A stretch of DNA of 64,000 nucleotides. It comes from Candidatus Omnitrophota bacterium. Lineage in GTDB: Bacteria > Omnitrophota > Omnitrophia > Omnitrophales > Aquincolibacteriaceae. Of the stretch, positions 31,543 through 47,484 are shown one piece after another. The position numbers and the translations under genes were made by a program. The DNA is taken from contig DAOPYQ010000005.1 of NCBI GenBank assembly GCA_035352955.1, positions 45,231 through 109,230 on the forward strand, written 5' to 3'. Numbering within the stretch: position 1 is the stretch's first letter; every line of letters starts with the position of its first letter. The notes under the pieces were generated by a model that saw only the letters and a program-made list of their open reading frames with translations, was not told the DNA's origin and ran no database searches.

Positions 31543-31706
31543 GATTTCTCCTTTAGGATAAAGCCCTAATATATTCAGGGGGAAAAGCGCCAAGATTCTA
31601 GGGCAATCGGCCCGAAATTCAAAACTAAAAATATCCCCCCAAGACAACCGCACGGGCCACGCCCGCGATGGACTTGGGTACGAGCTTTTGTTATGATGCC
31701 CTCCCT

Positions 31707-32855
31707 ATGGAACTTCTTCTGACAGCGTTTCTTGTATGGATCCTTGGCGTTTGGATCTACCGGAGCATCCGCTCCCTTTCCGAACTGGCCCAAGCCCCCA
31801 TCCTCAGAATCTCCTCCACAAATGTTCGCCGCGGCAAAGTTTCGATCCTGATCCCGGCGAAAAATGAGGAGAAAAATATTGCAGATTGCGTACAACCCCT
31901 GCTTGCGCAATTGCACGCAGGCGACGAACTGCTCGTGATCAATAACTGCTCGGCGGACCGGACCGAAACGATCCTTAAAGAACTCGGCGCGGTCGAAATT
32001 TCCGCCGCAGGGACCCCGCCGCAACTCAAAACGGCGCCATCCTTCCGCTATCTTAATACGCCCCAAACCCCGAACGGATGGACCGGAAAGAATTTTGCGC
32101 TACATCTCGGTATCGACCATGCCTCATGCGATTGGATTCTATTCACCGATGCCGACACGCGCCACGCGCCGGGAAGCATCGATGCCTCCGTGGCGTTCGC
32201 AGAGAAAAACAAAGTCGATCTCTTGACCCTCCTTCCCCGAGCGCTGGCCCACGGTTTCTGGGAAAACCTGATTCAGCCCTGCGCGATGGGTTACATGGGT
32301 CTCTGGTTTCCCGTCGCAAAGATCAACGACCCCGCTTCCAAAGTTCATTTCGGGAATGGCCAGTACCTTCTCATCCGTAAAGAGCACTACCAAAAACTCG
32401 GCGGGCATGCCGCAGTCCGGGAAGCGTTCCTCGAGGATTTTGCACTGATGAAAAAAACGAAGGAGATGAACGCCCGCGGCATCTGCGCGTTCGGTATGGA
32501 GATCTACGGGACCCGGATGTACGATTCGTTCGGTGCCCTCTGGCGAGGCTGGCGGAGGATCTATCTTCACGCCTTTGAGCAAGCTCCCTGGCGAATCCTG
32601 AAATGTGTCCTGAGCGTCTTCTTCTTTTCGGTTCTGCCGCTCTTGCTTCTAGGAGCCGCACCGCACGGGATCGAAATCCTGCTCGGTCTTATCATTATGG
32701 CTATCATCCTGACAACCGCGATTAAAGCCGCCACGATCGTAAAAATAAGAAAACGTTACGCCCTGCTCCACCCTCTCGCCGCACTCGTCTTCCTTGGAAT
32801 CCTCGCCGACGCCCTCCACATGGCCCTTCTAAAACGGCCCACTCTTTGGCGATAA
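31707..32855 (+). CDS. Family-2 glycosyltransferase (CrtQ/HpnI/ApeJ-like membrane GT2)
   Basis: VSILIPAKNEE, LLVINNCSADRT, TDADT, and NGQYLLIRKEHY, plus C-terminal TM helices. The start could instead be the ATG at 31668. Confidence 0.7.
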   Translation: MELLLTAFLVWILGVWIYRSIRSLSELAQAPILRISSTNVRRGKVSILIPAKNEEKNIADCVQPLLAQLHAGDELLVINNCSADRTETILKELGAVEISAAGTPPQLKTAPSFRYLNTPQTPNGWTGKNFALHLGIDHASCDWILFTDADTRHAPGSIDASVAFAEKNKVDLLTLLPRALAHGFWENLIQPCAMGYMGLWFPVAKINDPASKVHFGNGQYLLIRKEHYQKLGGHAAVREAFLEDFALMKKTKEMNARGICAFGMEIYGTRMYDSFGALWRGWRRIYLHAFEQAPWRILKCVLSVFFFSVLPLLLLGAAPHGIEILLGLIIMAIILTTAIKAATIVKIRKRYALLHPLAALVFLGILADALHMALLKRPTLWR

Positions 32856-32922: not shown

Positions 32923-34017
32923 CTAAAGGACGAGATAGCCGGCTTTCACGGCATAGTGAACGATCGTCTTGAGGAAATCGTAGTCGGTTTTTGGCATCGG
33001 AATACCCGTCCCTTTGAGAATCTCGCAGGTATTCGTTGTATCAAAGGTCAGATGACCGTTCAAGTATCCCAGATACGGCTCCATGATCGCAAATACCATC
33101 TGCTCCTGCGCGTTCATCTTGGATTTCTGGAAATCCTTCGGATGCATCACCTCGACCGGCGGCATATTGGGGTATTCCTCTCTCGCGAGCCTCAAAAGCG
33201 TTCCGATCGAAGGCGGATTCGGCGCGACAAGGTGGTAAGCCTTGTTGATACTCCGAGGATCTTTCACGATCGCCGCGGTGGCCCGAATGACAAAATCGAT
33301 CGGCACAATATTGAACGTATTCTCAAGATGGGTCGGCAGTTTTGAAAGCGCCCCGTGGGCAAAAAGTTTAAAGAACGGATAAATCACGTTAAAATCCGAA
33401 ACCACGCCCGTCTCCGAATGCCCCACCACAATGCTCGGCCGGATGATCGTCGTCGGAAGACCCTTCGCCATCGCCTCACGGACCTTGGTCTCCGCCTTGT
33501 ATTTGCTGGACTCGTAATAATTCGCGAATCCCGGTTTGGCGGGAAGCTCATCCTCTTTGGAACAATGGTTCCAAATGCTCCCTGCTACGAATGCCGTACT
33601 GAAATAGATAAACCTCTCGAGTTTTCCCTTTTTTCGCAAATCCCAAGCCAGCTCAAGCGCGTGCTCGGTTCCGCCCACATTGATCTGTTGACATTCCTTT
33701 TCCGTACCGTTCAGAGCCGTAAGCGCGGCGATATGGTAGAAAACCTTGCACTCCTGCTCCAGGAACTGGAGGTCGTCTTTTTTGATACCGAACTTATGGT
33801 TCGTAACGTCCCCCTCGATCACGCGAAGACGCGCGTTCAGATGGGAATCCAAGCCGATCCCAGTCAAAAGTTTTCTCACGCGTTCGTCGTGGGTCTTCCG
33901 GTTCTTCCCGCGAGCAAGAATCGCGATATCCGCCTTGGTGGTCTCCAAAAGCTCCTTGATGAGGTCCTGCCCGAGAACACCGGTCGCCCCGGTCATGAAA
34001 ATAAGTTCTTTAGCCAT
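32923..34017 (-). CDS. Stand-alone thioester-reductase-type SDR (fatty acyl-ACP/CoA reductase-like, 'male sterility' NAD-binding domain)
   Basis: FMTGATGVLG Rossmann motif and YESSKYKAE catalytic YxxxK. It is the last gene of the KS/ACP operon. Confidence 0.65.
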   Translation of the reverse strand: MAKELIFMTGATGVLGQDLIKELLETTKADIAILARGKNRKTHDERVRKLLTGIGLDSHLNARLRVIEGDVTNHKFGIKKDDLQFLEQECKVFYHIAALTALNGTEKECQQINVGGTEHALELAWDLRKKGKLERFIYFSTAFVAGSIWNHCSKEDELPAKPGFANYYESSKYKAETKVREAMAKGLPTTIIRPSIVVGHSETGVVSDFNVIYPFFKLFAHGALSKLPTHLENTFNIVPIDFVIRATAAIVKDPRSINKAYHLVAPNPPSIGTLLRLAREEYPNMPPVEVMHPKDFQKSKMNAQEQMVFAIMEPYLGYLNGHLTFDTTNTCEILKGTGIPMPKTDYDFLKTIVHYAVKAGYLVL

Positions 34018-35305
34018 GATGCTTCCTTAATGCCAGACAGATGTTCTGGCCGCCAAACCCGAAAGAGTTCGAAAGCGCCACGTTCACATCCGAACGCCGC
34101 GCGGTATTGGGAACATAGTCCAGATCACATTCCGGATCCGGTTCCTCATAATTGATCGTAGGCGGCAGCACCGAATCGCGCATCGCCAGAAGACAGAGGA
34201 TCGCCTCCACCCCGCCCGCGGCCGCGATCATGTGCCCGAGCATGGATTTTGTGGAACTCGCCGGGATCTTCGCCGCGTACTCGCCCATCGCTTTTTTGAT
34301 CGCACGCGTTTCGAGCGCATCATTCACCGCCGTCGACGTTCCGTGCGCATTAATATAATCGATATTTTCCGGTCCGACACCCGTTTTTTCCATCGCGATC
34401 TCGATGGCCCGCGCGGCACCTCGAACTTCCGGATCCATATCGGTCAAACGGTAAGCATCGGCGGTAGAACCGTATCCCGCGATTTCGCCGTAAATATGCG
34501 CTTTGCGCCTGCGCGCGTGTTCAAGCTCTTCCAGGATCAAAACCCCGGAACCTTCGGCGATTACAAACCCGTCACGTTTTTTATCGAAGGGACGCGAAGC
34601 TTTTTCGGGTTCGTCGTTGCGCCGGGACAGTGCCGTCAAAAGGCTGAACCCCGCAACACCCATCGGGTAAATCATCGAATGGGAACCGCCGGCCATGATT
34701 ACATCAGCATCCCCGCGGCGGATCCATTCAAACGCCTCCCCGATTGCCTGGGACGATGCCGCGCAAGCGGTTAAACAATTCGACACCGGCCCGCGGATAT
34801 CAAAAAGCCTCGTCAGATGCGTCACCGTCATGAACGGCTGGCTCTCAAGTTCCTTCAACGCGGTCATGTTCCGGCTCGCGTGATCGAGATAACGGCCCTT
34901 GTCCACAAGTTCCCCGGCACCGGAGTTGAACGAGGCGACGATCGTTTTTACGAAGGGATCGAAATCAATACCGCTGTCGCCAGCGCCGAAATAAATACCA
35001 AAGCGGCGAGAATCCACGGAGAACGGCCGGAGACCCGCATCCTTATAGGCCTCGGCTGCAGCCTGCAACGCAAAAAACGTACTCCGGGTCGCGCACGCAA
35101 GCGGAGGATTACGCTCCAACCATTTCTCGAACGGGAATCCTTTCACCTCACCCGCGATCCGGGTCGCAAACGTCGAAGCATCAAAAAGCGTGATGGGACC
35201 AACCCCGGACTTCCCCTGCGTGACGCGCAACCAAGTGTCCCGTACATTGTTGCCGAGCGGCGTTACGGCACCCATTCCTGTGACGACAATCTTTCGTTTA
35301 GACAT
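34010..35305 (-). CDS. Beta-ketoacyl-ACP synthase II-type ketosynthase (catalytic Cys-His-His intact)
   Basis: IVVTGMGAVTPLGN, active-site TACAASS, and NAHGTST / GHMIAAAG histidines. The ATG at 35305 is 8 nt from the CLF stop. Confidence 0.85.
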   Translation of the reverse strand: MSKRKIVVTGMGAVTPLGNNVRDTWLRVTQGKSGVGPITLFDASTFATRIAGEVKGFPFEKWLERNPPLACATRSTFFALQAAAEAYKDAGLRPFSVDSRRFGIYFGAGDSGIDFDPFVKTIVASFNSGAGELVDKGRYLDHASRNMTALKELESQPFMTVTHLTRLFDIRGPVSNCLTACAASSQAIGEAFEWIRRGDADVIMAGGSHSMIYPMGVAGFSLLTALSRRNDEPEKASRPFDKKRDGFVIAEGSGVLILEELEHARRRKAHIYGEIAGYGSTADAYRLTDMDPEVRGAARAIEIAMEKTGVGPENIDYINAHGTSTAVNDALETRAIKKAMGEYAAKIPASSTKSMLGHMIAAAGGVEAILCLLAMRDSVLPPTINYEEPDPECDLDYVPNTARRSDVNVALSNSFGFGGQNICLALRKHHG

Positions 35306-36584
35306 GTTTGAACACCAGGGATGCGTTCTGTCCGCCAAAACCGAACGTGTTGAGAACGACAGAATTGACCTGACAGGACTCCGCTTTTCCGCGCACGAAA
35401 GGCAACGAGCACAAAGGATCCTGTTTTTCAAGATTTGCAACGGGCGGAACGATCTGCTGTTTCGCGATCAGAGCCGCGATCACCGCCTCCACGCCTCCCG
35501 AACCATAAAGAAGGTTTCCCGTCACCGGTTTTACGGCGGTCACGCGCAACTTTCCGAAATCTTTGGGGTAGAGAGAATGAATGGCCAACGCCTCCTGAAC
35601 ATCCTCCTGCGGGATACCGCTCCCGTTCGCGACAAGAACGTCTACATCCTCCGGATCGAGCGCCGCGTCTTCGAGCGCACGCCGAAGCGCGACACGCTTG
35701 CCCGTAAAATCGTCGGAATCCCGCGGATCGTAATTATGATCTGAGGCAGAACCGTACCCGCTGATCTCGGCATAAATGTTCACGCCGCGCTTCTTGGCAT
35801 GCTCGTAAGATTCAAGAACGAGGATACCCGCGCCTTCGCCGATCACGATCCCATCGTGGTTTTCGTCGAACGGGCAGTAAACCTTTTCCGGAGCCGCGGT
35901 TCGTTTTGAAAGAAACCCGAGCAAATGAAGGCGCGAGATCCCCATCGCATTAACCTTCGAGTCGGTGCCGCCGGCGAGCATGATGTCCGCGTCCCCGCGT
36001 TCGATCACGCGGTAGGACTCCCCGATCGCCTGCGTGCTGGCCGCCGTCGAGGTCGTGATGGTGTTGCTGGGACCCCGGAGCTGGTTCAGAATAGAAACAT
36101 GGCAAGCCGGCATGTTCGGCAGGTATTTGAGGAACCAAAGCGGAAAAAGCGCGCGGATACCGTCCTGACCGAACTTTGTCATGGAAAAATGCCCGTTCGC
36201 GTCGACGCCGTTTTGGAACCCGACCCCCATTTCGTCGAGGTCGTTGTTGATAATGCCGGTGCCGAGCGTGACCCCGATGCGCGTCGGGTCACATTCCGCG
36301 GCAGAAAGTTTTGCGTCCCGGAGCGCGAGACGGCTCGCCGCAACCGCAAACGAAATCTCCCGTGACATCAGTTTGAGGGACTTTCGGTTCTCGACGTAAT
36401 CTTTCGGTTCAAATTCCGTGACACGTCCCACACCGTTCAGCGGAAACCCTCCAAGGTTCAACGCTTCGGCACTGCGAACGGCGGAGCGCGCGTGTACCGC
36501 GGCATCCCAGTAAGACTCCCAACCGTTGCCGCAGGGCGTGATCACGCCAAACCCCGTCACAACAACGCGCCGTCGCGTGCTCAT
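35298..36584 (-). CDS. Ketosynthase-like chain-length-factor partner (KS-beta); catalytic Cys to Thr and both His to Asn
   Basis: KS fold (VVVTGFGVITPCGN), but the active site is TSTAAST instead of TACAASS, and ANGSG / TGNLLYG replace NAHGT / LGHMI. Confidence 0.8.
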   Translation of the reverse strand: MSTRRRVVVTGFGVITPCGNGWESYWDAAVHARSAVRSAEALNLGGFPLNGVGRVTEFEPKDYVENRKSLKLMSREISFAVAASRLALRDAKLSAAECDPTRIGVTLGTGIINNDLDEMGVGFQNGVDANGHFSMTKFGQDGIRALFPLWFLKYLPNMPACHVSILNQLRGPSNTITTSTAASTQAIGESYRVIERGDADIMLAGGTDSKVNAMGISRLHLLGFLSKRTAAPEKVYCPFDENHDGIVIGEGAGILVLESYEHAKKRGVNIYAEISGYGSASDHNYDPRDSDDFTGKRVALRRALEDAALDPEDVDVLVANGSGIPQEDVQEALAIHSLYPKDFGKLRVTAVKPVTGNLLYGSGGVEAVIAALIAKQQIVPPVANLEKQDPLCSLPFVRGKAESCQVNSVVLNTFGFGGQNASLVFKHV

Positions 36585-37075
36585 TGTGAGAGACCGCTTT
36601 GGAATGAGTTTTCGTTCGCCCCCTGCGGTCCACTCTGCGTGACAGGCTGGCTGATCTTCGCGCGAACATTGAAATGTTTCATAAAAGCATCATGGAACGT
36701 GATCGATTTTGTTTGATCCGGCGAAAGGCCCGCCACCGCCATCAGAAGAAGTTTCGCCTTAGCAACCACTTCCCCCGCGGAAGTAATCGTCGCCTCAAGC
36801 CATCCGCCGTCGGTCCCGAGAGCTTCGGACCACGCCTCGATCCGGATCGGCGTTCCCGGAACGGGAACACCCGCGATTGTCGCGCTCTCGATCTTGGCAA
36901 AAATCAGATCTTTCCGGTAATCGCTTTCAGCACCGACGAGAAGCCCGCCGGTCTGCGCCATCATTTCGATAAAAAGAACTTCGCTGGAATACGGGGCTTG
37001 GGGAACTTTGGAGGTTGTGACGGCCCTCCGGCCTTTCAGAATGGAATCGACTTTGTCGAGAAGAAGCCAGCGCAT
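36581..37075 (-). CDS. Hotdog-fold 3-hydroxyacyl-ACP dehydratase (ApeI/FabA-Z-like)
   Basis: Size, operon position and ATGA coupling to neighbours. The sequence is weakly FabZ-like. Confidence 0.55.
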   Translation of the reverse strand: MRWLLLDKVDSILKGRRAVTTSKVPQAPYSSEVLFIEMMAQTGGLLVGAESDYRKDLIFAKIESATIAGVPVPGTPIRIEAWSEALGTDGGWLEATITSAGEVVAKAKLLLMAVAGLSPDQTKSITFHDAFMKHFNVRAKISQPVTQSGPQGANENSFQSGLSQ

Positions 37076-37076
37076 G

Positions 37077-37463
37077 TTATGTCCAGATCATCGCCTGGGC
37101 GCCCACAAGATCGCCGGAACGAAAAAAATGCCCCTCGCCCCGATACACGGTCTTCTGGTTCCGGGTGGATCGCCACTCCATTTCAAAATGATCGCCTGAC
37201 CGGCGCTTGATCCGCATACCCTGGAACCCTTCGAGCCCCATCCATGCCTCGCCGCAAGCTTTAAAAAATGCTTCCTTGGCAGTAAAAAGTTCGGCGAAAT
37301 CCCGGAGGGACAACCGCCGGAACGCGCGGCGTTCGGAGACATTCAGAAAACGCTCGCGGACATACTCTTTGTGGCGAGAAAGAAATTGTTTGACCCGGGA
37401 GCAAGAAACGAGGTCGACGCCGATGCCCCGCAGCGAGGCCGGCTTATTTTTTACGAGCAGCAT
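37077..37463 (-). CDS. acpS: Holo-ACP synthase (4'-phosphopantetheinyl transferase, AcpS family)
   Basis: GIGVDLV...FTAKEAFFKA motifs; 128 aa. Confidence 0.75.
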   Translation of the reverse strand: MLLVKNKPASLRGIGVDLVSCSRVKQFLSRHKEYVRERFLNVSERRAFRRLSLRDFAELFTAKEAFFKACGEAWMGLEGFQGMRIKRRSGDHFEMEWRSTRNQKTVYRGEGHFFRSGDLVGAQAMIWT

Positions 37464-37861
37464 TTATCCGAACAAGAACTCTTTTTATCCAAACGGTCGT
37501 TGAGATAGCGGAGGATCATCTTCACCGTAAAGTAGTCCGCCAACTTCGTGATCTGGGGATCCTTGGTGAACTCGTCGAGTTCGAGGTACGGAAGTTTGGC
37601 ACGGAGCTCCGCGAGACCTTCCGGCGTGACCATGCCCTCTTTCACGAACCGTTCATCATTCAGAAGATGACTCGGAAAAAGGTCCCCGGCGGGGATCTTG
37701 AGATCGAAGGTCTTTTCCAGGCGGAAAATCACATCGATGAAATCGATCGACTCGGCACCAAGGTCGCGCTTCAGGGAAGCTTCCGGGGTGATATCGCTTT
37801 CCTCCACACCGAGGGCGGAAGCAAGGGTCTGCTGAACTTTCGAAAAAATTTCTTTTTCCAT
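37451..37861 (-). CDS. Acyl carrier protein, long form (136 aa) with a Cys-rich C-terminal tail
   Basis: Phosphopantetheine attachment motif LKRDLGAESIDFIDV, and a C-terminus ...DKKSSCSDKCCS. Confidence 0.75.
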   Translation of the reverse strand: MEKEIFSKVQQTLASALGVEESDITPEASLKRDLGAESIDFIDVIFRLEKTFDLKIPAGDLFPSHLLNDERFVKEGMVTPEGLAELRAKLPYLELDEFTKDPQITKLADYFTVKMILRYLNDRLDKKSSCSDKCCS

Positions 37862-37892: not shown

Positions 37893-38306
37893 CTATGACG
37901 CTGCTATTGATGTCTGAGGATTCTTTACTTTCGCCACGGTCAGCTTGGCGGACACGGCCACTTCGCCATGATAATACAATTTCGCGTCCCAGGTCGTTTC
38001 GTCCTCCCCCGTCCCGAGAAGCGTCAAACGGCTCTCCCATTCGTCGCCGGGTCGGAGGTACTTGGTGAACCTTGTCGCGCGGATCTGTTTCAAAAAATAA
38101 TGACTTCCGGTATTGTTTTTGACCGACTCAAGATACCGTTCCGCGGTCTGCTTGAGCATTTCAAGTGCAAGAACTCCGGGCAGAACCGGAAAATCCGGAA
38201 AATGATCCTTAAAGAACTCCGAATCCTCGGGGATACGGCCGCACGCCGCGATCCCTTCCCCTTCTCTTACCCAAAGTACCCGTTCGATCGAAAGCACCGA
38301 TATCAC
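37893..38306 (-). CDS. FabZ-like 3-hydroxyacyl-ACP dehydratase
   Basis: HFPDFPVLPGVL, the FabZ active-site motif. GTG start. Confidence 0.75.
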   Translation of the reverse strand: MISVLSIERVLWVREGEGIAACGRIPEDSEFFKDHFPDFPVLPGVLALEMLKQTAERYLESVKNNTGSHYFLKQIRATRFTKYLRPGDEWESRLTLLGTGEDETTWDAKLYYHGEVAVSAKLTVAKVKNPQTSIAAS

Positions 38307-38326: not shown

Positions 38327-38947
38327 TTAGCGGACTTTAAGAACATACAATCCGTTCAGAATCCGGAAACCGGCAAGCCAAGTATAAAAAGGACTGAATG
38401 TCACGGCCTCAAGTTCCTGCCGCTCGAAAAACCCCAACCACTCTTCATGTTTACGGAACTGATGGGGATGGTCGAGCCATTCCAGATTCAACATCCGGTC
38501 GCGAAAGATCGTCCAGAACCGGCCAAGCTTATGATGATATAAATCCTCCACGACGATCACTTTGTCCCGCGTCACTCTTCGAACCTCCCGAAAAAGAGCC
38601 TCGGGGTCCGGCACATGGTGCAACATCGTCACCAGCAACGTCACGTCAAAACTTTTATCCGGGAACGGGATCCGGCCACCGTCATAGATCACCACGGGCG
38701 CCTGCTGATATCCCGGCTTTACCACGTCGACAACGAGATGCTCATGCCCCCGCTTCTTCATCGGCGCCGCGTAAAACCCCCAGCCACCACCAAGATCCAG
38801 AATCCGGCTCTTCGGAGGAATCTGTTTTTCAAAAAGCTGCGCAATTCCTTCGGCTCTCTTCTCGAGAGAGCCGCAAAAACAATGCCTCACAAGCCCGTCC
38901 AGCACACGGCGGAGAAAGGCCTGCAGATCTTTTTTGATAGAAGTCAC
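38327..38947 (-). CDS. Class I SAM-dependent methyltransferase
   Basis: ILDLGGGWGFYA glycine-rich SAM motif. GTG start. It is the first gene of the minus-strand lipid operon. Confidence 0.7.
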   Translation of the reverse strand: MTSIKKDLQAFLRRVLDGLVRHCFCGSLEKRAEGIAQLFEKQIPPKSRILDLGGGWGFYAAPMKKRGHEHLVVDVVKPGYQQAPVVIYDGGRIPFPDKSFDVTLLVTMLHHVPDPEALFREVRRVTRDKVIVVEDLYHHKLGRFWTIFRDRMLNLEWLDHPHQFRKHEEWLGFFERQELEAVTFSPFYTWLAGFRILNGLYVLKVR

Positions 38948-39153
38948 GATAAGAATAGAGACGGCATTAATATTTTGAGCGTGGAATTATAGCACAGCCC
39001 TTCTTCATGCCCCAAGAAATCTTTTTAGCATCGCATGCAAAATATCACCTGCCGTTTTTTTTCTTGCCCCGCACACCGCGACCACGTTTCTCTAGTCCTT
39101 GGAAAGTGAATTGAATATTGATTTTTCGAGAGAATGCGGCTATCGTATCGCCC

Positions 39154-39912
39154 ATGACATCACCTCTTAAAGGCAAAGTTGCTCTTATCACAGGTGCGTC
39201 CCGCGGAATCGGCAAGGCTACCGCCCTCCGTCTTGCGGACGACGGCGTCGCCATCGCGGTCAATTATCTCCAAAACGAGGACGCCGCAAAGAAAACGGTG
39301 GAGGAGCTCCAAGCCAAGGGCGTCAAAGCTGCGGCCTTCCAATGCAACGTCGGAGATCTCGACGCACACAACGAACTGATCGAGGGCGTGGTGAAAACGC
39401 TCGGCACGATCGACATCCTGGTCCACAACGCGGCGCTCGGCGCTTTCAAACCCGTCCACCGCCTCAAGATGAACCAGTGGGACCTCTCGATGAACATCAA
39501 CGCCAAGGCCTTCCTCGCGCTGACCCAGAAGGTCCTCCCCATCATGGAACCCAAAAAGGAAGGCTCGATCATCGCGATCTCGAGCCTTGGTTCGCACCGG
39601 TTCATCCCCAATTACGGTGCGATCGGGATTTCAAAAGCCGCGATGGAATCGGTGATCCGTTACCTCGGGGTCGAGCTGATGCAAAAAGGCATCCGCGTAA
39701 ACGGCGTTTCCGGCGGGTTGGTTGACACGGACGCGCTCAAGGCGTTCCCTTTTTTCGATGCGTTCAAAAATGAAGTGCTGAAGCGAACTCCGGCAGGGCG
39801 CATCGGAAAGCCGGAAGATCTTGCCCGCGTTGTCGCATTCCTCTGCTCGCCCGAATCTTCGTGGATCGTCGGTCAGGTCCTCATCGCCGACGGCGGCCTT
39901 TCGCTCATCTGA
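39154..39912 (+). CDS. 3-oxoacyl-ACP reductase-type SDR (FabG/ApeQ-like ketoreductase)
   Basis: KGKVALITGASRGIGKA and a catalytic YGAIGISKAA (YxxxK). It is divergent from the KS operon. Confidence 0.8.
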   Translation: MTSPLKGKVALITGASRGIGKATALRLADDGVAIAVNYLQNEDAAKKTVEELQAKGVKAAAFQCNVGDLDAHNELIEGVVKTLGTIDILVHNAALGAFKPVHRLKMNQWDLSMNINAKAFLALTQKVLPIMEPKKEGSIIAISSLGSHRFIPNYGAIGISKAAMESVIRYLGVELMQKGIRVNGVSGGLVDTDALKAFPFFDAFKNEVLKRTPAGRIGKPEDLARVVAFLCSPESSWIVGQVLIADGGLSLI

Positions 39913-41404: not shown

Positions 41405-41614
41405 CTAGAACGTAACCTTACCCGGGACAGTAGCTCCGGGAACATACTCGGCCGTATCAAATCCTACTTTTTTTGCTGTTGTTTCGCCGTCCGGACCCGT
41501 GTGCCAATATCCCGCGCCGGCACCAACGCGGACGCAACCCGCGAAACCCAACACGCCAAGCGCAACGATCAATATGACGCCGAAGCATCGACTCCGATCA
41601 GACCTGTTATTCAT
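41405..41614 (-). CDS. Small lipoprotein (69 aa), hypothetical
   Basis: Signal peptide with lipobox LGFAGC. Its start overlaps the lnt stop by 8 nt, which suggests translational coupling. Confidence 0.45.
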   Translation of the reverse strand: MNNRSDRSRCFGVILIVALGVLGFAGCVRVGAGAGYWHTGPDGETTAKKVGFDTAEYVPGATVPGKVTF

Positions 41615-43148
41615 TTGCCAACTTCCGGCGGAGAAAAACCGCGAGAATCAAAAAAAGAGCTGCGGCAACGTACGGAAAAAGGAATCCGCCCCGTCTGTAA
41701 AAAGTAGTTTCTGTTGCGAGCGGCAGGTCCAAAGTCTCATGCCCCAGTTCAAAGATCTCGCCGCCCTTCTCACCGCGAACGGTCGCAAGCAATTCCCCGC
41801 GGCGGGAAATAAACCCGGAAACCCCGGTATTCCCGGCCCGCACAACCGCCACACCGTTTTCGACGGCCCGGAAGACCGAGGCCTGAAAATGCTGGAACGG
41901 AGAACCCGTTTTCCCGAACCATGCATCGTTCGTGATCACGGTCAGGAATTTCGCTCCGCGATCCGCGTATTCGCGAGAAAGATCGGTAAAAACATCCTCA
42001 AAACAGATCAGCACGCCGAACGGCCAATCCTCGCGCGCCCACCGGAAAAGCACCGGCACGGTCCCTGCGCTGAAATCGCTGATCCCGAGAGACTCCGCGA
42101 TCGGTGTCAGCCAGAAAAAAATCGGCTTCAGCGGGATAAATTCCCCGAACGGTACAAGGCGGAGCTTGTCGTAACGGCCAAGACCCACGCCGTTCTTATC
42201 GAGGAGATACGCGCTATTGTAAACCTCCTTCTCCGTCACCCAGTAGAGCGCCCCGATCAAAAGAGGCGTCTGAACTTCCTTGGCAAGCTGCGTGATCCTC
42301 GCCGCGGCAACATCCCCGTTGAAATACCCCGGGAACGCGGCTTCTGGCCAAATGATAAGGTCGGGCTGTTTTACCGCCGCCAACTGCGTCAACTTAATGT
42401 AGATTTCGAGGATCTTCTCCTTCGCCATCAGCTCCCATTTGACCGACTGGGGAATGTTCCCCTGAAGTACCGAAACGCGGAGATATTCCTCCGGCTTTTC
42501 CTCCCGGCCAAGCCGCCGGTCCCCGTAGACCATGAGCCCGATCAAAATCCCAACGCTTACGGCAAAGAGCGCCGCCGGAACCCCCCGCTTGCGCAATTTT
42601 TTCGGAGCAAAAAGTTCGAACACGCACACGTTCACGATTGCGATCAGAAAGCCGAGACCGTACGCCCCCCAAATACTTGCGGACTGGATCATCACCGGGT
42701 ACGGGGCCTGGGAATACCCCAAAAGATTCCATTCCATCCCAAAAATCGGGACTTCCGAACGGAGGATCTCAATGACGGTCCACGCAAGCGCAACCCAAAG
42801 AACCCGGAACCAGAGCGGCGCCTGGGCTTTGCGGACCGCATACGCGAGGCAAGTAAAACCCGTGAGATAAACCGTCTGCATCAACGTCCATAGGATCCAC
42901 CCGGCGGGCGCCACATGCGTCAACCAATGCATCGAAAGACCGAAGAAGACGAGACCAAAAACAACACCGGCTCGTGCGGCTTGAGCCAGTGTCTCCGCTT
43001 TGCGGATGGCAAAAAACAGCGGGACAAGCGCGACCCAAGCAAGAAAACCCCAGGCGGGATGAGGATAGCTTAAGGTGAGAAGAATACCGGAAGAGGCGGC
43101 CAGGAAGGCCCGCGAGCGGAGTCCCAAAGAGAAGGCTCTTTTATTCAT
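41607..43148 (-). CDS. lnt: Apolipoprotein N-acyltransferase
   Basis: 8 TM N-domain plus a CN-hydrolase domain with the catalytic triad conserved (IIWPEAA, YDKLRLVPFGEFIP, VLICFEDVF). Confidence 0.9.
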   Translation of the reverse strand: MNKRAFSLGLRSRAFLAASSGILLTLSYPHPAWGFLAWVALVPLFFAIRKAETLAQAARAGVVFGLVFFGLSMHWLTHVAPAGWILWTLMQTVYLTGFTCLAYAVRKAQAPLWFRVLWVALAWTVIEILRSEVPIFGMEWNLLGYSQAPYPVMIQSASIWGAYGLGFLIAIVNVCVFELFAPKKLRKRGVPAALFAVSVGILIGLMVYGDRRLGREEKPEEYLRVSVLQGNIPQSVKWELMAKEKILEIYIKLTQLAAVKQPDLIIWPEAAFPGYFNGDVAAARITQLAKEVQTPLLIGALYWVTEKEVYNSAYLLDKNGVGLGRYDKLRLVPFGEFIPLKPIFFWLTPIAESLGISDFSAGTVPVLFRWAREDWPFGVLICFEDVFTDLSREYADRGAKFLTVITNDAWFGKTGSPFQHFQASVFRAVENGVAVVRAGNTGVSGFISRRGELLATVRGEKGGEIFELGHETLDLPLATETTFYRRGGFLFPYVAAALFLILAVFLRRKLANE

Positions 43149-43152
43149 AAGG

Positions 43153-44730
43153 CTAGCCTTTCGTCCGCCGCCTCAGGACCGACATAAAAAAAATCCCGAG
43201 CATTATCAAACCAAGCCCGTACGGCAACAACCAACCACCGCGGCGATAAAATGTCCGGCGATCCGTGAGAGGAAGATCGTAAGTGATCTGCCCCTTCACG
43301 GAAACGCTCTGTCCTTTTTCATCCTGGACCATCCCGAGAACCACCCCGCGATCCGAAACGATCCCCGAAATGCCGGTGTTCGCGGAACGCACAACGGGAA
43401 TACCGTTCTCGACGGCACGAAAAATAGAAGTGTACAAATGCTGCAAAGGCGCCCCGCCAACCTCGAACCAGGCATCATTCGTAAGGATCACAAGAAAACG
43501 GCATCCGCAATCGGCCAACTGGCGCACGAGATTCGGAAAAACATCTTCCACACAAATGATCACTCCGAAAGGCCATCCCGCTCCCGTCCACTGAAAGATC
43601 CCGAAATCCTCTCCGGGAAGGGTCGCCTCGATGCCCATCGCGCGTGCAACCGGTGTCATCCAAAAGAGGACCGGACGGGCCGGGATATATTCTCCAAACG
43701 GCACGAGCTTCAGCTTGTCGTAGCGTTCACGGGTCACGCCTTTTTGATCGATAAAATAAGCGCTGTTCCGTACGTTCTGGTCTCCTTCCCATTTTAACGC
43801 GCCCACGACCATCGGAACCCCGATCGAACTCGCGAGATCTTTCACCCTCTGCGTATCAATATCCCGGCCCAGGACCCCCGGGAAAGAGGTTTCGGGCCAC
43901 ACAATCAGATCGGAACGATCCGCGGCCGCCTGTTGCGCAAGCTCTTCATAGACCTGGAGAATGTTTTCCTTCTCCACGGGGTCCCATTTTTCGGATTGAT
44001 CGATATTCCCCTGCAGGACGGACACACGAAGCGAATCTACGGACGGCGCAGCGTGTGCGATCGACCATGATCCGTAACAAAAAAGAGAACCGATCACCGC
44101 AGTCATGGTCAAAAAAAGCGCCGCCATCACCGTCGGCGCAGAAAGTTTCCGCTTCATGAAGGAAGCCTGGCAAGAACCGGGATCCGCGACCAGCACGAGA
44201 GTCTTCGCGACGCAAACGTTCACAGCCATCACAAAAAAACTCAGCCCATAAGCTCCGACAATGTCCGCGATCTGAATGATCGCGCGATACGGCGCCTGGG
44301 AAAACGCCAAGAGGTTCCATCCGAGCCCAAGCACGGGGATCTCCGTCCTGACAAATTCCATAAAAACCCACGCCGCGGACGTCCACACGATCTTAGCCGG
44401 AATACTTTTCAGAGAACGGCTGCCCCAATAGGTCAACGCGGCAAAAATCGCGAAAAAACAGGCCTCCAGCACAAAAAAGAAGATCCAGCCTCCCACGCTC
44501 ACCACGGACATCCAGTCCATCGTCACATTGAAGAAAACCGCGCCGGTGATCCATCCGTACCACACCGCGCGCCAGAGGCTGCGGGCGGAACGGATCGCCA
44601 AAAGAAGGGGCACAAGCGCGATCCATCCGAAGAGGGGCCAACCGGGATAAGGAAATGCGACCAAAAGCATCAGACCACTCAAGAAAGCCAGACGCTTGCA
44701 CATCGGTTTTTGAGGCAGGATCTTACTCAT
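43153..44730 (-). CDS. lnt: Apolipoprotein N-acyltransferase paralog (second, tandem copy)
   Basis: Same architecture with the triad intact ([30 protein letters not shown]). It lies 4 nt upstream of the other lnt, and its start is 4 nt after the secA stop. Confidence 0.85.
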
Positions 44731-47404
44731 TTTTCCCGCAACATTTTTTGTATTTTTTTCCGCTGCCGCAGGAGCAGGGATCGTTACGGCCAACCTTGGG
44801 CTCCGCGCGATGCACGGGCTCCGGTTTTTGATCCGGAGAGCCTCCGCGGGGCGAAAAATGGGTGTCGAAACCTTCCCCCGCTGCGGGCCCCGGCCGGGAT
44901 TTCGGCGCGGTCTCTTTGATCGCCTGGGTTTCGGGATGAAGGTACTGGGCCTTCGGCGTTTCGAGAACGCCTGCGGTTTTTGTTTCGTGAACGACCTGCA
45001 CGCGGAAGAGAAGCTCGATCGCCTCTTCCTTGATACGATCCGTCATTTCATCGAACATATTGAACGCTTCCCGCTTGTACTCAACGAGCGGATCCCTCTG
45101 TCCATACGCCCTCAGGCCGATCCCCTCCCGGAGATTGTCGAGGCCGTAAAGATGCTCTTTCCATTTCGTATCGATCACCTGCAGGAGGATGAATTTTTCG
45201 AGATACTGCGTCTGTGCGGCGCCGAAAACCTTCTCTCGTCTTTGAAACTCCTCCTGAACGGTCTGATTGATCGCCTCAAGAAGCGTATCGATCTCATACT
45301 GGTTGTCCTCCACGCATTTGCGAAAATCCACGCCAAACCGTTCCCCAAGCGCCGCGATCAAACCCTCCGGGTTCTTGTCCTCTTCCCGCATATCGGGATG
45401 GACATATGTCGCGACCATGCCTTCGACCACATTTTCGATCATCTCAAACACATGCTTTTTCAGCTCCTCGGGACTGCCTTTCAGAATGAGATCCCGCTCC
45501 CCGTAGATCAACTCACGCTGGCGGTTCATCACGTCATCGTATTCAAGCAGATGTTTGCGGATCTCGAAATTGTGGGCCTCGATCCGTTTCTGGGCCGTTT
45601 CCATCGCACGGCTCACGAACGGGTGCTGGATCTCTTCCCCTTCCTGAAGACCGAGGCGCTGCATCATGCCGGAAATGCGGTCCGCTCCGAAAAGCCGCAT
45701 GAGCTCGTCCTCGAGCGAAATATAGAATTTCGAGGAACCGGGATCACCCTGACGGCCGCAACGGCCGCGGAGCTGGTTGTCGATGCGACGCGCTTCATGA
45801 CGCTCGGTCCCGATCACGGCAAGCCCGCCTTTGTCCGCGACCCCGGGGCCGAGCACAATGTCCGTCCCACGGCCCGCCATGTTCGTGGCAATCGTCACCA
45901 CCGCAGGCTGACCGGCCTGGGCAACGATCTCGGCTTCCTTTTCGTGATATTTGGCGTTAAGCACGGTATGCGGAAGATTGATCTGATGAAGCATTTTGCT
46001 CAGACGCTCGGACCTCTCGATCGAGATCGTACCCACAAGCACCGGACGCCCTTTTTTATGTTCTTCCACGACCTCGCGCACCACCGCTTCAAATTTTTCT
46101 TTTTCGGTCCGGTAGATACAATCCGCGGAGTCGACTCGGACGCACGGACGGTTCGGCGGCATGACGACCACGTCCAGTTTGTAGATCTTGTCGAACTCGA
46201 CCGCTTCGGTCGCCGCGGTACCGGTCATCCCGCCCAGTTTCTTGTACATGCGGAAATAATTCTGGAACGTGACCGTCGCGAGCGTCTGGTTCTCCCGCTT
46301 GATCTCAACGCCTTCTTTGGCTTCCAGTGCCTGGTGAAGACCGTCCGAAAAGCGGCGGCCCGGCATGAGACGGCCCGTAAACTCATCGACGATCAATATC
46401 TCACCATCTTTGACCACGTACTCGACATCGCGCGCAAAAAATTCCTTCGCCCGAAGCGCCGTGATGATGTGATGGCGTTCGGACACCGTATCGGAGTCGT
46501 GCATATTGCTGACGCCCATCGCGCGCGCGGACTTGGTCTCGCCCGATTCCGTCAGGCGGATCGTCTTCGCCTTTTCGTCGGAGATATAATCGCATTCCTT
46601 TTTAATCTCTTCGAGTTTCGCTTTCCATTCCGGATCGACCTCTTCCTTAGCAATCCGATATCCTTTCAAAGACAGCGCGGCGCGCTGGGCCCTGAAATAT
46701 TTGTCCGTGGAATCTTCCGCGGGACCGGAAATGATAAGCGGTGTACGGGCCTCATCGATCAGGATCGAATCGACTTCGTCCACGATCGCGTAATGGAGCG
46801 GACGCTGGACGCGCATCTCGAGACCAGTAACCATGTTGTCACGAAGATAATCGAACCCGAATTCGTTGTTCGTTCCGTACGTGATGTCGGCGTTGTAGGC
46901 CTTCTGACGTTCTTCCTGCGGGATATCGTGCTGGATCACGCCGACGGTAAGGCCGAGAAATTCATAAATCGGCCCCATCCAATTGCGGTCACGGCGAGCC
47001 AGATAATCGTTCACGGTCACAAGGTGGACGCCCTTTCCTTCGAGCGCGTTCAGATAGACCGGAAGTGTCGCAACCAGCGTTTTCCCCTCGCCGGTGGACA
47101 TCTCTGCGATCTTCCCCTTGTGGAGCACAAGTCCGCCGAGGATCTGCACGTCAAAATGCCGCATCTTGGTCGTTCGACGTGACGCCTCCCGAACCACCGC
47201 GAACGCCTCGGGGAGAATGTCGTCGAGCGTCTGCCCCTCGGCAAGCCGCTTCCTGAATTCGTCCGTTTTGGCGCGGAGTTCGGCATCCGTAAGTTTCTGG
47301 ATCGCCGGCTCGAGCGCGTTGACCTCCGCCACAACCGGCCAGAGGGTTTTAAGGGTGCGGGTATTTTGCGTTCCGAATATTTTCTGCAGAATAAAGTTAA
47401 TCAT
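44723..47404 (-). CDS. secA: Preprotein translocase ATPase SecA
   Basis: DEAD motor, [13 protein letters not shown] and HWD domains, and a C-terminal zinc finger [14 protein letters not shown]. The start is at the internal ATG ([11 protein letters not shown]). Confidence 0.95.
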
Positions 47405-47484
47405 ATGTTTCACGCAACGCGTAAGCCCAACGCGCAACGAAAGAGCCTTATCGTTGAACGTTGCGCCTCGCGCGTTGTGCGCCT

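Follow-up and report, generated by a model that had tools for sequence, protein, structure and literature searches.

Two adjacent ketosynthase-like genes

A 64,000-nucleotide (nt) stretch of DNA from a Candidatus Omnitrophota bacterium (contig DAOPYQ010000005.1, positions 45,231 to 109,230), referred to here as the window, carries on its minus strand two adjacent genes for FabF-like proteins. One encodes a ketosynthase (KS) with an intact Cys/His/His triad; the other, lying immediately 5' of it, encodes a homologue in which all three catalytic residues are replaced. This triad-less protein is the subject of the present analysis, and it is probably a non-catalytic partner of the KS, resembling the chain-length factor (CLF) of type II polyketide synthases (PKSs). 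The features of the pair, in window coordinates, are as follows; residues described as facing one another occupy the same alignment column.

35298..36584, minus strand: triad-less FabF-like protein (putative CLF-like KS partner), 428 amino acids (aa); T180/N320/K352/N357
34010..35305, minus strand: active FabF-like KS, 431 aa, presumed catalytic partner; C181/H321/K353/H358
35298..35305, minus strand: 8-nt overlap ATGTCTAA between the stop of the triad-less gene (ending at 35298) and the KS start (ATG at 35305), consistent with translational coupling
36045..36047, minus strand: Thr180, codon ACG, facing the KS nucleophile Cys181; the nearest relatives have TCG, TCC or TCA (Ser)
35625..35627, minus strand: Asn320, codon AAC, facing the first catalytic His (KS His321); Asn in 117 of 121 aligned family rows
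35514..35516, minus strand: Asn357, codon AAC, facing the second catalytic His (KS His358); in the family, His in 89 rows, Asn in 31 and Asp in 1
36099..36143, minus strand: signature block PLWFLKYLPNMPACH, residues 148-162, a predicted helix-loop-helix at the dimer interface and acyl tunnel, defined from the clade alignment

The two proteins align end to end with 34% identity over 429 columns (BLASTP, E 9e-85). The triad-less protein reads TSTAASTQAIGE at residue 178, ANGSGIP at 319 and TGNLLYGSGG at 355, where the active KS has TACAASSQAIGE, NAHGTST and LGHMIAAAGG, respectively; K352 and the GFGG loop are kept. A preliminary description of this DNA had claimed the loss of all three catalytic residues, and every motif that it quoted is found at the register given. 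The substituted sites fall into a single register in the BLASTP alignment with the KS, in phmmer alignments with the Listeria and B. subtilis FabF structures, and in a three-way MAFFT alignment that includes E. coli FabF. An alternative register restoring Cys/His/His, as the description had proposed to look for, was sought with these three concordant methods and none was found. Sequencing error is an unlikely cause of the substitutions, because the identical protein is present on five independent public contigs, annotated as Candidatus Omnitrophota.

Both ketoacyl-synt domains of Pfam (N- and C-terminal) are detected in the triad-less protein. Its NCBIfam scores are 345 bits with TIGR03150 (fabF; cutoff 494) and 338 bits with PRK07314 (cutoff 387), and the active KS reaches 475 bits with the latter model, above the cutoff. 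The Thr/Asn/Asn triad and the two scores under cutoff rule out a canonical FabF (KAS II).

An AlphaFold2 monomer model of the triad-less protein, built on 32 family sequences, has a mean predicted local distance difference test score (pLDDT) of 86 and a predicted template-modelling score (pTM) of 0.87, with low confidence confined to residues 112-117 and 146-152. Foldseek searches against the PDB place FabF structures at the top (3o04 and 4ls8; TM scores 0.85-0.89, 33-36% identity). Model and matches together uphold the earlier statement that the thiolase fold is kept, and the KS thiolase fold of the model rules out a differently organised thiolase or acyltransferase.

Close family and selection

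A search of 5.8 billion proteins yielded 120 close homologues at 55-100% identity, every named member of which is from Omnitrophota. At the Cys site the 121 aligned rows of this family carry Ser in 97 cases, Ala in 20, Thr in two and Cys in two, the two Thr rows being the window protein and an identical database copy (P0001). Gln at this site was found in none of the 120 homologues. Taking the three sites together, the combinations are Ser/Asn/His in 65 rows, Ser/Asn/Asn in 29, Ala/Asn/His in 19 and Thr/Asn/Asn in two. The Lys352 position is invariant throughout the close family, and the ANGSG motif is invariant within Omnitrophota.

Judged from these aligned rows, the Thr/Asn/Asn of the window protein is a derived state, the usual state of the family being Ser/Asn/His; codon ACG of Thr180 is a single base step from the Ser codon TCG of the nearest relatives. 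The presentation of Thr as a notable and unusual variant is not supported. The family norm is Ser (97 of 120), Ala is found in 20 of 120, one TCG-to-ACG change suffices, and Thr also stands at this site in the Scalindua form of amxFabFmut, the catalytically mutated FabF homologue of anammox bacteria (Granatino et al., bioRxiv 10.64898/2026.05.19.726425). In itself, the exact set Thr/Asn/Asn is unimportant.

The ratio of nonsynonymous to synonymous substitution rates (dN/dS) is 0.04-0.12 for the triad-less gene and 0.04-0.095 for the active KS of the same genomes. The triad-less protein is thus under strong purifying selection despite the drift at its former catalytic sites.

Distribution and phylogeny of the wider clade

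The family alignment supplied two peptide patterns, G[IV]INNDLD and LKYLPNMP, with which one genome per GTDB species was scanned. At least 599 stretches were matched and at least 567 confirmed in species-representative genomes, from Omnitrophota and Planctomycetota. Omnitrophota and many Planctomycetota (among them Planctomycetia, Pirellulales, Gemmatales, Thermoguttaceae and Phycisphaerae) account for the best 80 loci, with Kolteria novifilia Pan216 and Blastopirellula marina DSM 3645 as cultured strains, and almost all of these 80 have Ser, Ala, Val, Asp, Glu or Gly at the Cys site. When 1.84 billion representatives of 50%-identity clusters were searched, KYLPNM was present in 42 of the best 150 matches, almost all of them Cys-less. 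Fusions of a KS with a degenerate KS (760-880 aa) were also met in the representative search; they lack KYLPNM and hence provide no Rosetta-stone evidence for the clade.

All triad-deficient proteins form one clade with a long stem in a neighbour-joining tree of 147 sequences, and the KS proteins encoded next to them form a separate clade among canonical FabFs. Bootstrapping, run on an 83-taxon subset, supports the triad-deficient clade in 100 of 100 replicates and the KS-partner clade in 99 of 100; the support is 94 of 100 once two KYLPNM proteins that retain Cys-His-His (P0131 and L026) join the triad-deficient clade. At one Omnitrophota locus (L018, 3899-5197) the upstream gene encodes a clade member with KYLPNM that keeps Cys/His/His and has GLSG in place of the GFGG loop. 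Its existence suggests that the triad was lost after the motif and the pairing had arisen, and the L018 protein may represent an intermediate state in the loss of activity.

Literature on Omnitrophota or Planctomycetes chain-length factors and FabF yielded no characterisation of the clade. Rattray et al. 2009 (PMC2649909) tabulated FabF paralogues of R. baltica, among them RB3714 with Asp and RB4527 with Glu/His/Lys/Asn, and assigned no function. Compared by residue pattern only, the E-H-K-N of RB4527 is that of the solitary Planctomycetia clade members described below.

Gene order and coupling

The 8-nt overlap reported in the preliminary description is present as stated. The description of the KS as the upstream gene has to be reversed: on the coding (minus) strand it is the triad-less gene that lies 5' of the active KS. 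The same order holds at all 40 paired loci, with the triad-less gene directly 5' of the KS gene. At 21 of these junctions the two genes overlap and at 11 they are separated by a gap of 0-30 nt, so that 32 of 40 lie within 30 nt.

A conserved block at the predicted interface

Thirty alignment columns are invariant across 29 diverse clade members, and 12 of the 30 lie inside the 15-residue signature block: P148-L-W-x-L-K-Y-L-P-N-M-P159 together with H162, with C161 falling just short of the 90% threshold (Ser in 3 of 29). The resulting signature, PLW-x-LKYLPNMP-[AS]-CH, is found in all 29 members, the window protein included. The block aligns with SPFFVPSTIVNMVAGH of E. coli FabF and is preceded by an insertion of about 18 residues relative to that protein, a comparable insertion being present in the KS partners. 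It overlaps the low-confidence segment 146-152 of the AlphaFold2 model. No PDB chain contains the signature block, and a search with a 79-aa interface segment gave nothing better than E 0.13.

At the equivalent place the KS partners have a different conserved motif, E-L-E-Q/S-E/Q-P. The invariant Lys153 of the triad-less proteins aligns with the invariant Glu154 of the KS, and a charge complementarity between the two across the pseudo-twofold axis would fit this alignment. In the anammox heterodimer, Phe135, Thr138 and Val139 of amxFabFmut line the substrate tunnel of the active subunit; the equivalent helix-loop-helix becomes ordered in the heterodimer, while most of it is disordered in crystals of the amxFabFmut homodimer (Granatino et al., bioRxiv 10.64898/2026.05.19.726425). 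The low confidence of the AlphaFold2 monomer model is confined to this same element.

The operon and its variants

The pair is part of an operon of eight genes with four overlapping junctions. The other members and the two syntenic flanking genes are:

38327..38947, minus strand: class I S-adenosylmethionine (SAM) methyltransferase, first gene of the operon (Pfam/NCBIfam)
37893..38306, minus strand: FabZ/ApeI-like dehydratase (DH1) with catalytic His (DHFP) and Glu (LEMLKQ)
37451..37861, minus strand: dedicated acyl carrier protein (ACP), 136 aa, residues 8-62 matching the PP-binding model (a typical ACP has about 78 aa)
37077..37463, minus strand: AcpS-type phosphopantetheinyl transferase (PPTase)
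36581..37075, minus strand: second hot-dog protein (DH2), FabZ-like, with a 4-nt overlap with the CLF-like gene; Glu kept (IEMMAQ), His-bearing loop absent
32923..34017, minus strand: thioester reductase (NAD_binding_4/TIGR01746-like), last gene of the operon, with an 8-nt overlap with the KS gene
31668..32855, plus strand: convergent membrane family 2 glycosyltransferase (GT2; HpnB/CruG-like), syntenic in relatives
39118..39912, plus strand: divergent short-chain dehydrogenase/reductase (SDR), best NCBIfam match FabL enoyl-ACP reductase (297 bits, cutoff 328), syntenic in relatives

FabZ active sites combine a His from one subunit with a Glu from the other, and it is therefore likely, by analogy with ApeI:ApeP, that DH1 and DH2 form a heterodimer with one active site. 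The DH2 Glu is present in 42 of 42 orthologues, and DH1 orthologues carry the ApeI-like domain of Pfam. At two loci of the type B arrangement defined below (L020 and L079) the His motif of DH2 is still present. The ACP scores under every NCBIfam housekeeping-ACP cutoff; it has a long conserved extra segment after the Ser-bearing helix, and its orthologues have 128-137 aa. The methyltransferase is small and weakly similar to several models, BioC (malonyl-ACP O-methyltransferase, E 5.5e-5) among them; that it masks a primer as BioC does, which would imply an omega-functionalised product, is pure speculation. No FabH- or FabD-like gene is present in the operon, and no canonical fabF/acpP set within the 64-kb window.

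Three arrangements recur among the loci. Type A, found in most of the Omnitrophota loci recovered and in the window, comprises a divergent FabL-like SDR followed by the methyltransferase, DH1, an ACP of 128-137 aa, the AcpS-like PPTase, DH2, the triad-less KS, the KS and the thioester reductase; a convergent GT2 gene follows the reductase, and the locus usually adjoins lnt and secA. Type B (other Omnitrophota, Kolteria, Gemmataceae and Phycisphaerae) has DH1, an SDR, the ACP, sometimes the PPTase, DH2, the triad-less KS and the KS, and has no reductase. Type C, in many Pirellulales and Thermoguttaceae, is a solitary E/D-H-K-N protein. Within this type, a few Planctomycetaceae (L075, 8001-10854; L080, 8001-10589) encode an E-H-K-N member just 3' of a canonical FabF, and it is this canonical FabF that the tree places near the E. 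coli protein.

Comparison with known systems

The closest characterised analogue of the window pair is the amxFabF2/amxFabFmut heterodimer (amxFabFhet) of anammox bacteria (PDB 9s5h/9s5i), in which amxFabFmut is encoded just upstream of amxFabF2, the two proteins co-purify as a heterodimer, and activity is seen only when both are present (Granatino et al., bioRxiv 10.64898/2026.05.19.726425). According to the same authors, the Cys site of amxFabFmut is occupied by Val (Thr in Scalindua), and Asn, Glu or Cys stand at its His sites. The two systems share a full-length FabF-like protein with a mutated triad, encoded immediately 5' of an active FabF-like KS in a cluster that also has a FabZ-like dehydratase and a dedicated ACP. 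The structural homologue reported as closest to amxFabFmut, B. subtilis FabF, is also among the top Foldseek matches of the window protein, and the host phyla of both systems belong to the PVC group. They differ in that the radical-SAM (B12) and phytoene-desaturase genes of the anammox cluster are not found in the window operon or its immediate neighbours, whereas the window operon adds AcpS, the second, His-less dehydratase, the methyltransferase and the thioester reductase. In addition, the PLW..KYLPNMP signature is not present in the 9s5h chains.

Single-sequence phmmer scores of the triad-less protein are 280 bits with FabF, 180 with the actinorhodin KS, 160 with amxFabFmut (9s5h_C) and 148 with the actinorhodin CLF. 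A profile of the clade gives 381 bits with FabF, 283 with amxFabFmut (9s5h_C) and 239 with the actinorhodin CLF, and with a profile of the KS partners 9s5h_B ranks below about 28 FabFs. Orthology with amxFabFmut/amxFabF2 was rejected on the ground that the anammox chains score below canonical FabFs, although hidden Markov model scores are no phylogeny and a very deep common origin is possible. Nor was there support for a dehydratase or ACP of the anammox type, and hence for an orthologous cluster: structures that we take to be anammox FabZ (8ay*/7qv0) rank under E. coli FabZ, and no anammox ACP comes first. The scores, the absence of the signature block from solved chains and the missing radical-SAM and desaturase genes argue that the triad-less clade is a FabF-derived clade separate from the anammox pair.

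The CLF of a classical type II PKS has Gln at the Cys position and is encoded 3' of KS-alpha. The actinorhodin KS-alpha/KS-beta (PDB 1tqy) resembles the window pair in that an inactive KS homologue joins an active KS and an interface tunnel controls chain length. By contrast, the window protein has Thr (Ser in its family), its gene lies 5' of the KS here and at the 40 paired loci, and it is nearer to FabF than to the actinorhodin CLF. The window operon is also fatty-acid synthase (FAS)-like, with a dehydratase pair and a nearby FabL-like reductase, and lacks cyclases and aromatases. A classical type II PKS CLF is ruled out by the missing Gln, the reversed order and the affinity to FabF.

The aryl polyene system of E. 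coli CFT073 (L084) likewise combines a KS with a dead partner (ApeO:ApeC) and a His-bearing dehydratase with a His-less partner (ApeI:ApeP). Its cluster, like the window locus, has dedicated ACP(s), a methyltransferase and a GT2, and it shares an MMPL transporter with an Omnitrophota relative of the window (L001). However, ApeC is truncated (240 aa, compared with 428 aa here), ApeO and ApeR share no more than 28-33% identity with the window proteins, and the window operon lacks ammonia lyase, CoA ligase and LolA-type genes and has a thioester reductase instead. Identity with ApeC was rejected on the difference in length and on BLASTP against the E. coli CFT073 protein, which gave no match at E 1e-2.

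Proposed function and alternatives

Dead KS partners set the chain length in polyketide synthases. In KS catalysis the Cys takes the acyl chain and the first His is needed for decarboxylation. Having no Cys, the triad-less protein cannot be acylated in this way, and with Asn in place of both His residues it cannot decarboxylate malonyl-ACP. Most likely it folds as a normal thiolase-fold subunit and pairs with the KS encoded immediately 3', which would give a KS/CLF-like enzyme with one active site. The helix-loop-helix of the signature block would then form part of the partner's acyl tunnel as well as of the dimer interface, and its position could govern which substrate or chain length is preferred and make heterodimers more favourable than homodimers, Lys153 opposite Glu154 of the KS being a possible contributor. 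The KS pair would work on the dedicated 136-aa ACP, primed by the AcpS-like enzyme of the operon, with dehydration by DH1 and its His-less partner DH2; the terminal thioester reductase would release an aldehyde or an alcohol. Priming may proceed through malonyl-ACP decarboxylation in the active subunit, as for the anammox heterodimer, which is plausible because neither a FabH- nor a FabD-like gene is present in the operon. The FabL-like reductase and the dehydratases point to a chain that is reduced and resembles a fatty acid, not an aromatic polyketide; the thioester reductase would set it free as aldehyde or alcohol, and tailoring is suggested by the methyltransferase and the HpnB/CruG-like GT2.

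We therefore consider it probable that the triad-less protein is a FabF-derived pseudo-ketosynthase acting as a non-catalytic, CLF-like heterodimer partner of the downstream KS. A non-catalytic partner fits best because strong selection and strict coupling to the KS are combined with neutral-looking drift at the catalytic sites and extreme conservation of the interface and tunnel segment. The reading of the preliminary description as a CLF-type partner is thus the best-supported one in substance, in the sense of a CLF-like protein; a classical CLF it is not, in view of the 280 bits with FabF compared with 148 for the actinorhodin CLF and the placement in a clade of its own. Heterodimer formation we infer from the synteny, the coupling and the conserved interface block, and the role in the tunnel and the nature of the product are likewise deduced.

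Several points weigh against this assignment. The physical complex is a prediction, and the Lys153/Glu154 pairing is a reading of aligned sequences. Many clade members of Pirellulales and Thermoguttaceae (E/D-H-K-N) have no KS within 8 kb, and since such solitary members exist, an adjacent partner is not always needed by the clade. The S. brodae amxFabFmut was crystallised as a homodimer (Granatino et al., bioRxiv 10.64898/2026.05.19.726425), which shows that a dead subunit is able to pair with itself. Finally, most members of the close family keep Ser and the second His, and a residual or different chemistry is possible in the ancestral form.

In one alternative the triad-less protein is no obligate KS subunit but works alone, either as a homodimer or together with other partners, its non-catalytic role being to bind acyl-ACP or ACP, to sequester it or to regulate. 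The solitary members in many Planctomycetia and the self-association of amxFabFmut would agree with this, as would the few Planctomycetaceae (L075 and L080) in which the dead paralogue comes after a canonical fabF. Nevertheless, we regard solo action as unlikely, since adjacency and order are invariant in Omnitrophota and at all paired loci, mostly with translational coupling, and since the strongest conservation falls in the very segment that touches the other subunit in FabF-type dimers.

It is less likely still that the protein has kept or gained a different catalysis in a remodelled pocket, such as Ser/Thr-based acyl transfer, hydrolysis or decarboxylation. Ser at the Cys site in 97 of 120 homologues, His at the second His site in 89 of 120, the invariant Lys352 and the ANGSG motif invariant within Omnitrophota speak for it. 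However, Ala replaces the Ser in 20 of 120 and Val, Asp, Glu or Gly stand there in the wider clade; the first His, which KS decarboxylation needs, is Asn in 117 of 121 rows; and in the window protein, with Thr and two Asn, no plausible nucleophile-base pair is left.

Membership of a described CLF family, whether type II PKS KS-beta, aryl-polyene ApeC or anammox amxFabFmut, has as its attraction that all of them set a triad-less KS homologue beside an active KS and a dedicated ACP. We consider true orthology highly improbable, given that both the single-sequence and the clade-profile scores are well above those of the actinorhodin CLF and amxFabFmut for FabF, that no solved chain has the signature block, that the 240-aa ApeC gives no BLAST match, and that Gln at the Cys site is missing and the gene order is opposite to that of KS-alpha/KS-beta. 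A decaying, functionless KS duplicate, which the loss of all three catalytic residues might otherwise bring to mind, is effectively refuted by the intact open reading frame (ORF), the dN/dS of 0.04-0.12, the conserved synteny and the at least 567 confirmed relatives in species-representative genomes of two phyla.

Returning to the CLF-like partner, a broader and more tentative proposal is that the pair represents an ancient two-subunit ketosynthase of Omnitrophota and Planctomycetota, with an origin independent of actinobacterial CLFs, ApeC and anammox FabFmut. Together with the dehydratase pair and the long ACP it might form a second, specialised FAS-like machine, which in Omnitrophota would end in reductive release and yield a reduced lipid typical of the phylum (fatty alcohol, aldehyde or glycolipid); heterodimer specificity would possibly reside in the PLW..KYLPNMP block, with Lys153 facing Glu154.

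The design of a KS with a non-catalytic partner is already known; the Omnitrophota/Planctomycetota clade itself is unstudied. The locus shows the same design in a separate and very widespread clade, which has its own signature motif and offers a testable handle on the repeated evolution of heterodimeric FAS-type ketosynthases from FabF. For a FabF homologue pair of the candidate anammox ladderane gene cluster, the dead partner is required for activity (Granatino et al., bioRxiv 10.64898/2026.05.19.726425). Expressed clusters that antiSMASH calls 'ladderane' have been reported in a metagenomic study from Omnitrophota and from other phyla outside the anammox group; these calls may be the same loci as the triad-less clade, which may thus bear on 'ladderane'-type cluster calls outside the anammox bacteria. 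Almost all knowledge of the phylum Omnitrophota comes from metagenome-assembled genomes (MAGs), and the locus points to a conserved, uncharacterised lipid pathway in it.

Neighbourhoods of individual loci

In Kolteria novifilia Pan216 (L032, 10689-15583) the KS pair is followed 3' by genes for an alpha/beta hydrolase, a GH3-family adenylating enzyme, a phosphatidylserine decarboxylase and a CDP-alcohol phosphatidyltransferase, which places the cluster in a membrane-lipid neighbourhood. An Omnitrophota relative with a 58%-identical protein (L001, 13656-20615) has, after the reductase, a gene of the membrane fatty-acid desaturase family and one for a 516-aa protein without a Pfam match; further 3' follow a GT2, an MMPL/Patched-type transporter and a flavin adenine dinucleotide (FAD) oxidoreductase, of which the window has the GT2 alone. 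Another relative, at 75% identity (L002, 1-7423), has a giant ORF of more than 7,691 aa without a Pfam match directly upstream of the operon, at the place where the window has the FabL-like SDR.

Directly upstream of the region, the window carries two paralogues of apolipoprotein N-acyltransferase (Lnt) in tandem (41607-43148 and 43153-44793, both on the minus strand; 44% mutual identity), next to secA (44723-47437), and the lnt-secA linkage to the operon is kept in relatives. Finally, a complete type B cluster is present in a MAG labelled Alcaligenaceae (L044); all its relatives are from Planctomycetota or Omnitrophota, and the label is probably a binning or labelling error and not a sign of transfer.

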